IMG/VR virus record: IMGVR_UViG_2923312938_000004
Length of the DNA: 37,945 bases
Source of the DNA: a virus
Lineage: Monodnaviria > Loebvirae > Hofneiviricota > Faserviricetes > Tubulavirales > Inoviridae
Strand: one strand, 5' to 3'
Part shown: piece after piece, positions 2,661 to 3,887 of the stretch
How the letters are laid out: the number at the start of each line of letters is the position of its first letter
How positions within the stretch are numbered: position 1 is the stretch's first letter
Notes under the pieces: generated by a model
What the model was told of the DNA's origin: nothing
Database searches by the model: none
The model's input: only the letters and a program-made list of their open reading frames with translations
Translations under genes and position numbers: made by a program

Positions 2661-3887
2661 TTAAAATGGAACTGAACGATTATAGAATTTACCTGCAATT
2701 ACCTGCCGATAAACATCCGGTATTGAAAATCTAATCTTCTCATCCTGTATATCCTCATGTCTGACAATAGCAGTAAAGACCGCCTCGTAATCATTACCGA
2801 GAAGATGAAATAGCTTTGCAACAGATTTAGAGCACTGCTTACGTAACCAGTGAACATTATGTTCCAGTGCATTAATTGCCTTTTTTTCGTCCGCTAAATC
2901 AGGACGATAAGGATTAAACTTGCGTGGTTTAGCTGGATTGATTTGTGCTGCATAATCACACAATCCCGTAAAATAACCGGCAATATCAAGCAGTACATCA
3001 ACAGGAACCCCTTTAAGCTCGACCTCAGAACGATTCCACGTACCACTGACTTTTTGTTCAAGCGCTTTATTATAGATACGCCAGTAAACACGCGATTGCC
3101 GGGAACCAAACGTGTACATCTCCTGCTTTAATACTGCGCGACCATCCCATTTACAGGAGTTCGAAAAACCCGGACGCGGTCCCTTACCACTATAAAACGC
3201 GCCAGAGCGATGATCGCGAACAGCAGCGTCACACGTAAAAACACCATCGAAATCATCAACAGCCAAATCAATACGCTTAAGTGTCGTAATATTGAGATGT
3301 TTCAACCATTTGAATACATCCTGAGGCTCAGTGCCACTAAATACATGAGCACATCCCAGACCGGAAATCTGTATATATACCGTGTTATTGTTTCCACCCC
3401 AGAACACAAAGCCATGTAAATTATTACCGCCATCGTCAGAAAATAATGGCGCAGAACAGCGATAATTAAAGCCACCACGATCCCGCTCCGGTCCCATACT
3501 CAAACCAAAAGCACTGGATAACCAGATTTTAAGACGATGCAAATACGCAGCCTGAACAGCCTGATTATATTGTTCAATATGCTGTTCAATAAACGCTCTA
3601 TCACCAGAAATGCCGCTACAAATTTTATCTGACTCCGCATCATCAGGAACCCAGCATCGAGTCTCAGGATCAACCACATCACGAAAGAAGGCATCACGAC
3701 CGGGCAGAAAATCACGCAGACGCGGCATGGAACCATACTTACGCCAGAACTGAATAGCGCCGTCGAAAGTCTCAAGATTCTTCAGCTCACTCATGGGGAA
3801 AGTGAATGCAAGATGGTCTATGAAGACGTGACGTATGGTTTCCTGAACCGGCTTCATTAGCAAACAGTCTCCTGATAACCGACCCAT
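2661..3887 (-). CDS. Rolling-circle replication initiator (Rep, gII/RstA-like), 408 aa
   Basis: Largest ORF, first in the minus-strand structural operon. Contains [11 protein letters not shown] and a Tyr-x-x-Lys segment ([12 protein letters not shown]) of the kind seen in Rep_trans/phage RCR initiators. An alternative start at 3857 has GGAG upstream and overlaps the upstream ORF stop as TAATG. Confidence 0.7.

Follow-up and report, generated by a model that had tools for sequence, protein, structure and literature searches.

A probable RstA-type rolling-circle initiator and its putative origin hairpin in a tandemly arrayed, dif-integrated filamentous prophage of Escherichia coli

We analysed a 37,945-bp stretch of inovirus DNA (IMG/VR record IMGVR_UViG_2923312938_000004), referred to here as the window, with a focus on the replication protein (Rep) encoded on its minus strand within positions 2661–3887. 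The explanation that best accounts for the data, to which we assign a probability of about 85%, is that Rep is the RstA-type rolling-circle initiator of an 8.27-kb filamentous prophage integrated at dif in Escherichia coli, with nicking and array-templated production expected by homology. Rep already has a RefSeq annotation, “replication initiation factor domain-containing protein”. The protein is, with good support, an ordinary and unnamed member of a well-known family, whose mechanism can be read from RstA of the Vibrio cholerae phage CTXphi and from the enzymes of pT181-family plasmids. The protein family, the mechanism and the modularity of inoviruses were established before this work, and current understanding is not overturned. 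What is added here is a residue-level map of the active site, a conserved origin hairpin, direct evidence for cassette exchange and a CTX-type integration architecture in E. coli.

The gene is delimited as follows.

2661–3857, minus strand (398 aa; maximal open reading frame (ORF) to 3887, 408 aa): Rep, a putative Rep_trans/RstA-like rolling-circle initiator, assigned from Pfam, PHROG, identity to RstA, and AlphaFold2 (AF2) and Foldseek results.

The ATG at 3857 is the likely start because it is the RefSeq start, an AGGAG motif lies ~11 nt upstream, the ATG overlaps the stop codon of a 65-aa ORF (TAATG) and the homologues begin there. A Pfam scan of Rep returned one match, Rep_trans (PF02486; E = 1.5e-21), which covers profile positions 2–194 of 201 and scores 77.3 bits against a gathering cut-off of 29.6 bits. 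PHROG 453 (“replication initiation protein”) also matches (E = 3e-109). Among sequenced phages, the best matches are the RstA proteins of CTXphi and pre-CTX, with 33% identity over 92% of the protein (E = 2e-51), and direct blastp against CTXphi RstA gave 33% over 380 aa (E = 5e-60). A database search with Rep retrieved 190 homologues, all of them PF02486 proteins, from E. coli, Salmonella, Proteus, Providencia, Xenorhabdus (where some are named RstA), Photorhabdus, Yersinia enterocolitica and Vibrio; the Vibrio proteins named RstA belong to this same set. When the single Rep protein was used to scan genome contigs, two Photorhabdus loci were the only ones recovered.

The structural comparison agrees with the family assignment. 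The only solved structure found by sequence with Rep is RepSTK1 of Geobacillus (4cij, E = 2e-6). An AF2 model built from a 34-sequence alignment has a mean predicted local distance difference test score (pLDDT) of 83.4, with a core above 90. Foldseek comparison of the model to the Protein Data Bank (PDB) gave three strong matches, 4cij (E = 1.3e-11), 4cwe (5e-6) and 4cwc (3e-5), all with probability 1.0, and the next match was at E = 0.03. These three are all Rep_trans entries, and the model has the Rep_trans catalytic-domain fold.

Several negative results set Rep apart from the initiators of the Ff phages. No HUH (H-hydrophobic-H) motif is present in Rep, no Pfam match to the gene II families Phage_CRI and G2P_X_C (PF05144, PF05155) was detected at E ≤ 0.1, and blastp against M13 gene II returned E = 9.5, that is, no similarity. 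As a positive control, the Rep of a sibling prophage with a gene II-type replication block (described below) matched both gene II profiles. The gene II protein of M13, fd and f1 has the same role in a filamentous phage, as initiator of plus-strand rolling-circle replication, but it belongs to another Pfam family and is of the HUH type according to PMC4439123. On these sequence and model comparisons, Rep is a genuine Rep_trans rolling-circle initiator of the RstA (CTXphi) type, and not an HUH enzyme. A sequence-only reading of this DNA had proposed that Rep is Rep_trans/RstA-like and that it does not resemble the fd gene II protein; the Pfam search that it recommended, together with the RstA identity and the Rep_trans-only structural matches, bears out both statements.

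Rep_trans also includes relaxases of the MobT type (PMC6499999, PMC9371924), so Rep could in principle serve conjugation or mobilisation of an integrative conjugative or integrative mobilisable element (ICE/IME) and not phage replication. The NCBIfam MobT model (NF041493) does match Rep very weakly (E = 0.0066), but at 15.3 bits against an equivalog cut-off of 600. Moreover, Rep sits within a complete inovirus gene set (coat, pIII, pVI, pI and pIV), its nearest characterised relative is RstA, and the gene list of the unit contains no conjugation genes. We regard a MobT-type relaxase as scarcely credible here.

We then mapped the active site onto that of characterised Rep_trans enzymes. Residue numbers refer to the 408-aa form of Rep unless stated otherwise. 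The chain numbering of 4cij in our alignment is offset by +2 from that of PMC4797284, and the mapping was corrected for this offset. In RepDE, the catalytic tyrosine is Y191 (Y179 in RepSTK1), accompanied by R189 (R177) and K193 (K181), and the metal ligands are D142 (D116), E214 (E196) and D46 (D9) (Carr et al. 2016, PMC4797284). Two blocks of Rep, one around RIDLAVDD (aa 203–215, window 3243–3281) and one around RIYNK (aa 267–278, window 3054–3089), align with RLDVAVDDF and VRFYEK of RepSTK1. The mapped elements are:

3066–3080, minus strand: R270-I-Y272-N-K274, predicted catalytic Tyr strand, aligned to R177/Y179/K181 of RepSTK1; all 34 homologues compared have the R, the Y and the K.
3252–3275, minus strand: R-I-D207-L-A-V-D-D, predicted metal-ligand Asp strand, with D207 aligned to D116 of RepSTK1, a Mn2+ ligand; D207 and D211 are invariant.
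3024–3026, minus strand: E288 (in S-E-V-E-L-K), second mapped metal ligand, aligned to E196 of RepSTK1; invariant.
3816–3818, minus strand: D24 (in V-F-I-D-H-L-A-F), candidate third metal ligand, an invariant Asp in the first beta strand of the model.

The alignment to 4cij, read with the residue roles given in PMC4797284, identifies the RIYNK block as the predicted catalytic-Tyr strand and the RIDLAVDD block as one predicted metal-ligand strand. R270, Y272 and K274 sit on a beta strand of the AF2 model (E257–263 in 398-aa numbering). In both the 25- and the 34-sequence alignments, which span 34–100% identity, the residues D24, R205, D207, D211, G261, R270, Y272, K274, E288, E290 and K292 are invariant.

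The sequence-only reading had singled out RIDLAVDD and Y-x-x-K segments as typical of Rep_trans initiators. The RIDLAVDD block and the tyrosine block are real, but the label Y-x-x-K was wrong by one residue: the actual motif is R-x-Y-x-K (RIYNK). The sole literal Y-x-x-K in Rep is YSGK at Y232, which is unrelated to the catalytic segment. Y-x-x-K is the motif-3 signature of HUH-type Reps, a separate superfamily. Rep_trans proteins have no HUH motif and hold their metal with three carboxylates (PMC4797284), and the naming of RstA as an “HUH endonuclease” in PMC4439123 is at odds with this structural work.

Rep is carried by a repeated phage genome. The window consists of 4.6 head-to-tail copies of one 8,269-bp unit, which start at positions 1, 8270, 16535, 24799 and 33066 and share 99.9–100% identity. 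The copies differ at 13 places, of which 12 are one-base indels within homopolymer runs and the other is a G/A substitution, a pattern typical of long-read consensus noise. The Rep gene is untouched, and all five copies have the ORF at 2661–3887 with 100% identity. A unit comprises a complete inovirus (filamentous-phage) genome with almost all genes on the minus strand and two small genes on the plus strand. Read in the phage sense, the order is a 65-aa ORF, Rep, a 113-aa ORF, small membrane ORFs, the major coat protein, a pIII-like protein, a pVI-like protein, a pI/Zot-family protein and a pIV secretin. The unit is 100% identical to prophages of the finished E. coli genomes E24377A, 503440, 504211, 503829 and TW10573, mostly human enterotoxigenic E. 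coli (ETEC) strains, and tandem copies occur in finished E. coli genomes as well, the 504211 array among these. A megablast search of the INPHARED phage collection with the unit found no nucleotide match, and matches there were at the protein level only.

The assembly and adsorption genes have another affinity than Rep, as listed here.

5776–6996, minus strand: pIV secretin (Pfam Secretin, E = 2e-25; M13 gene IV, E = 1e-15).
7006–8262, minus strand: pI/Zot-family assembly ATPase (Pfam Zot, E = 1e-9; M13 gene I, E = 2e-28).
363–1691, minus strand: pIII-like attachment protein with an Ff-type N1 domain (Pfam Phage_Coat_A, E = 2e-10; M13 gene III N-terminal region, E = 1e-8).

We use “Ff-like” for these proteins to mean 25–32% protein identity to M13. 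The pI protein matches M13 gene I with 32% identity over 228 aa, as against E = 4.9 (no match) with CTXphi Zot, and the pIII-like protein has no match to CTXphi OrfU at E ≤ 10. The replication module thus appears CTX-like, and the export and adsorption modules distantly Ff-like.

Stronger evidence for a mosaic comes from a sibling prophage. In strain 504211 (locus L002, NZ_CP025865, ~560–33,250), adjoining hipBA, a dif array contains two gene II-type prophage copies followed by two Rep_trans-type copies. The gene II-type sibling (~560–16,600 of L002) matches positions 5286–8269 and 1–2293 of the unit (pIV, pI, pVI, pIII, coat and small ORFs) at 96–98% nucleotide identity, and the coat, pIII, pVI, pI and pIV proteins are 94–100% identical. 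The intervening block is delimited by blastn breakpoints.

2294–4880, no strand assigned: exchanged replication/regulation module, with breakpoints against L002 at unit positions 2293 and 4880.

Across this block, the sibling has no similarity to the unit except for one 91-bp island. The Rep that the sibling encodes there has G2P_X_C (E = 1.5e-19) and Phage_CRI domains, and its block also contains a helix-turn-helix (HTH) gene and the gene for a gene V-type helix-destabilising protein. Because the sibling is near-identical outside the block and gene II/gene V-type inside it, these comparisons show a recent exchange of the whole replication/regulation cassette between otherwise near-identical phages. 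One dif array with two prophages that are 96–98% identical outside a 2.6-kb block is an unusually clean natural case of a replication-cassette swap. The sequence-only reading had suggested such a mosaic with Ff-like morphogenesis, and the pI, pIV and pIII N-domain matches to M13 together with the gene II/gene V block of the sibling confirm it. The mosaic is real but expected: mosaics of this kind are the norm for inoviruses, and an earlier study had concluded that their genes for replication and integration are those exchanged most often (Roux et al. 2019, PMC6813254).

A third combination of modules is present at the same locus in strain UTI89. Its dif prophage (L051, NC_007946, ~7130–16,700) encodes a gene II-like Rep (M13 gene II, E = 2e-7), an RstR-like HTH protein, a Zot-like pI and a secretin 51% identical to that of the window, and it has an exact dif on one flank. 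Both the sibling and the UTI89 prophage lie, like the unit, between ydeT-region fimbrial genes and hipA; they differ from it in having a gene II/X-family Rep and no CTX-type hairpin, and the sibling adds a gene V-type single-stranded DNA-binding protein. From serotype (O18:K1:H7) and locus, we presume that the UTI89 prophage is CUS-1, a close relative of YpfPhi of Yersinia pestis. CUS-1/YpfPhi had been considered as an RstA-type phage, and we dropped this assignment in view of the gene II/X-family Rep of the UTI89 dif prophage, presumably CUS-1.

We searched for the origin at which Rep would act. In CTXphi, the site in Ig-1 that RstA nicks is beside rstR and falls between a G and a T of a hairpin's apical loop (PMC4439123, PMC8265649). 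When we folded CTXphi Ig-1, a hairpin ACCCCCGT-CTAGTATT-ACGGGGGT was found ~78 nt from the end of rstR. A near-identical hairpin occupies the syntenic place in the window.

4489–4512, minus strand: probable plus-strand origin (ori(+)) nick hairpin ACCCCCGT-CTTGTAAC-ACGGGGGT.

It lies on the phage-sense strand ~85 nt past the end of the divergent 70-aa gene. A degenerate pattern of the hairpin occurs once per unit, in five of five copies, with none expected from shuffled sequences, and the hairpins of the window are spaced 8,269 bp apart. The same pattern was detected in 44 IMG/VR contigs, and 41 of them encode a Rep_trans protein. By tblastn, 39 of the 44 have an RstA-like protein, down to ~35% identity to RstA; in 38 of these 39, the hairpin shares the strand of rep, and it typically lies 430–630 nt upstream of that gene. 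Two of the five other contigs have a very distant Rep_trans-like ORF that directly adjoins the hairpin. A Photorhabdus prophage, whose Rep is 46% identical to that of the window, has ACCCCCGT-CCTGTACT-ACGGGGGT ~700 nt upstream of rep. In an alignment of five origin regions, the hairpin was the sole invariant block: stem and loop core are kept for Reps down to ~33% identity, and the flanks are not. Within the 504211 array, both Rep_trans-type copies have the hairpin and neither of the gene II-type copies does. (As a control, which carries no weight, an Ff-type nick sequence was sought in the gene II-type sibling, and no match was found within five mismatches.) From conservation and position, the ACCCCCGT hairpin is probably the ori(+) nick hairpin, and the predicted nick, CTTG/TAAC (slash, nick), would separate G4501 from T4500 of the minus strand, a position placed by analogy with PMC4439123. 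The conserved hairpin offers a simple DNA signature for locating RstA-type origins.

Two side observations concern these regions. The five hairpin contigs without a clear RstA homologue (L004, L007, L017, L023 and L039) may be satellites or truncated contigs. The island shared within the swapped block is a GA-rich stretch at window positions 4554–4644 on the phage-sense strand, 87% identical to the gene II-type sibling, and similar GA-rich stretches also precede the origin hairpin in CTX-like contigs.

The integration site has an architecture of the CTXphi type. E. coli dif with up to three mismatches was not found in the window; the att sites are more diverged and were located by palindrome and junction analysis.

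4880–4980, no strand assigned: attP, an imperfect palindrome of two inverted dif-like sites, consistent with CTXphi-type folded single-stranded DNA (DNA fold −44.7 kcal/mol, z = −11.2).

The single prophage of E24377A runs from unit position 4964 through 8269 and then from 1 to 4976. It is flanked by ATTTAACATAATATACATTATGCGCACT, which matches dif at 27 of 28 positions, and, on the hipA side, by ACATAACGTGTAACACATTATGCGCACC, a hybrid site with the XerC-arm half only. The inverted dif-like hairpin, one regenerated dif and one hybrid site are what would be expected of a CTXphi-type integrative mobile element exploiting Xer (IMEX) at dif. YpfPhi has the same folded-att architecture and habit of forming tandem arrays (PMC4266046). 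In CTXphi, production depends on tandem elements, with one origin upstream and another downstream, and rstA with two copies of Ig-1 suffices even in E. coli (PMC8265649).

From these elements, we propose the following mechanism by homology. Rep would bind the origin region just past the divergent small gene and nick the phage-sense strand in the hairpin loop (CTTG/TAAC) by means of Tyr272. D207, E288 and probably D24 would hold Mg2+ or Mn2+, and R270 and K274 would assist in cleavage and religation. Rep would become 5'-linked to the DNA, and host polymerase would extend the 3'-OH. The prophage would have integrated as a folded single-stranded DNA hairpin at dif, and its double-stranded form would for that reason have no pair of sites fit for simple excision, so the chromosome would most likely be the template for new plus strands. 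Synthesis that begins at one copy's origin and ends at the next origin, 8269 bp downstream, would release a circular single strand with a regenerated intact attP, which the Ff-like pI/pIV machinery would export. The spacing of the origins in the window fits this tandem-array mechanism. The replication/regulation block at 2294–4880 would act as an exchangeable cassette. The mechanism predicts that tandem lysogens are productive and that single-copy lysogens are not.

Several points weigh against this reading. The equivalence of D24 to D9 of RepSTK1 is a candidate assignment that lies outside the crystal-structure alignment. We infer that “hairpin 2” of CTXphi is the ACCCCCGT hairpin, since the text of PMC4439123 gives no hairpin sequence. 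In three of the 44 hairpin contigs, no Rep_trans ORF was detected. On the plus strand, the same hairpin, a stem with six GC pairs followed by TTTTT, also looks by its score like an intrinsic terminator for the 70-aa gene. Because chromosomal flanks are missing from the window, the 4.6 copies could represent a concatemer made in assembly instead of a chromosomal array. Finally, E24377A has one prophage copy only, and under the array model this copy would be non-productive.

The terminator score raises the alternative that the hairpin is the terminator of the divergent small gene and nothing else, with the origin elsewhere, for example in the ~305-bp repeats described below or in the GA-rich island; in keeping with this, the exact CTXphi nick-hairpin sequence was not found in the literature searched. 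Yet the equivalent hairpin of CTXphi has no T-run on the rstR strand and is still conserved in stem and loop core. The hairpin also segregates with Rep_trans, being absent from the gene II-type sibling, which has a divergent gene of its own, and in the two contigs with a distant Rep_trans ORF the hairpin abuts that ORF and does not lie behind a repressor gene. The terminator and origin roles are, moreover, compatible with each other, and because the plus-strand hairpin and its T-run score as a terminator, a dual role as nick site and terminator of the 70-aa gene is possible. We consider a terminator without an origin function unlikely.

A second alternative is that the element is a decaying, non-replicating prophage whose tandem copies arose by Xer or homologous recombination or by assembly, and not by Rep activity. 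Many E. coli genomes contain partial copies or copies disrupted by the insertion sequences IS3 or IS1, Rep is split in strain RM14721, and there are truncated cluster members, to which the single copy of E24377A can be added. Rep is, however, intact and identical not only in the five window copies but also across unrelated ETEC genomes; all its catalytic residues are kept, and all morphogenesis genes are intact. The same phage also occurs as IMG/VR contigs of about unit length, 7.1–7.9 kb (L029, L045 and L047). On balance, a decaying prophage seems slightly less likely still than a hairpin that serves as a terminator alone, and we retain the reading of Rep as the initiator of a replicating, dif-integrated phage.

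This reading places CTXphi-type replication and integration (an RstA-like Rep, an Ig-1-like origin and a folded attP) in ETEC and other E. coli, joined to an Ff-like export module that encodes its own secretin. A further proposal, possible though a little short of an even chance, is that the element is the E. coli counterpart of the CTXphi lifestyle: a non-excising dif prophage that yields virions only from tandem arrays, with mixed arrays as a standing site of cassette exchange and with the hairpin-terminator coupling transcription to initiation. Mixed arrays would be such a standing site because the array and near-identical assembly genes are common to the unit and its gene II-type sibling.

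We compared the unit to the known systems on which the reading is based. Besides the family and identity shared by their initiators, CTXphi (Affertcholeramvirus) and the window phage have the same order of attP, origin region, divergent small regulator, control region, rep and small downstream gene. Their origin hairpins have near-identical stems and the loop core TnGTA, and both phages have a folded double-dif attP and tandem prophages. The two differ in host (V. cholerae as opposed to E. coli) and their Reps are about one-third identical. The regulator of the window phage has no RstR or HTH similarity, its 113-aa gene has no RstB similarity, and CTXphi has no counterpart of orf65, the gene coupled ahead of rep here. 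CTXphi also has no secretin, whereas the window phage encodes its own, and the pI and pIII proteins here are Ff-like, not Zot/OrfU-like. No toxin cargo was found in the window phage. RepC and RepD of the staphylococcal pT181-family plasmids and RepSTK1 of Geobacillus, the group to which the solved structures 4cij, 4cwc and 4cwe belong, share with Rep the catalytic fold, the R-x-Y-x-K strand and the carboxylate ligands, and these enzymes also nick in the loop of an origin hairpin (PMC4797284). Identity to these enzymes is 14–19% in structural alignments. In the model, Rep has an additional low-confidence, mostly helical insertion of ~95 residues between strand 1 and the core (aa ~22–117 in the 398-aa form), and its helical C-terminal region differs from that of these enzymes. 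The helicase partner is PcrA for pT181-family plasmids, whereas UvrD is reported for CTXphi (PMC4439123).

The genes and signals next to Rep are as follows.

3857–4054, minus strand: orf65, 65 aa, PHROG 3104 (unknown function); its stop overlaps the Rep start.
4192–4404, plus strand: divergent ~70-aa gene in the rstR position, candidate repressor; RefSeq-equivalent end, role from position.
2316–2657, minus strand: 113-aa gene directly downstream of Rep, a positional analogue of RstB or gene V.
4088–4117, minus strand: promoter-like TTTACA-18-TATGAT upstream of orf65 and Rep, from a consensus scan and not enriched over shuffles.

The TAATG overlap suggests that orf65 is translationally coupled to Rep. 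The promoter-like site falls within the divergent control region 4055–4188, a position equivalent to ig-2 of CTXphi. The divergent gene encodes 70–71 aa in copies 2–5 and in RefSeq; copy 1 lacks one A of an A-run at 4386, which fuses the gene into an artificial 94-aa ORF (4189–4473). Its 70-aa product had no match in Pfam, NCBIfam, HTH models or the PDB, and from its position it is a candidate repressor. A ribbon-helix-helix resemblance was considered for it and set aside, as these searches gave it no support.

The 113-aa gene was exchanged together with Rep, and the sibling has a gene V-type single-stranded DNA-binding protein in its place. Its product matched neither a protein family nor a PDB entry, and at a pLDDT of 34 the AF2 model is unusable. 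A large-database search retrieved seven close E. coli clusters with 71–98% identity, and a local jackhmmer search over all fetched loci found near-identical copies only. The name “type II/III secretion system domain protein”, which some sources give to homologues of this protein, seems to have been carried over in annotation. The proteins at the RstR and RstB positions resemble neither RstR nor RstB and match no HTH or OB-fold family: the module is RstA-like in Rep, origin and layout, and not in its accessory proteins.

An Rfam search of the unit found no family match. Between pIV and attP, the unit contains a ~305-bp direct repeat (window 4976–5285 and 5286–5575) whose copies are 84–88% identical. 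Both copies start with CTGGCGTTGTG, the sequence that adjoins the attP crossover point, and each has an AT-rich hairpin of 14–17 bp. The repeat may be what is left of a hybrid junction, or it may serve as a minus-strand origin or as a packaging signal. The gene II-type sibling prophage has a single copy of it.

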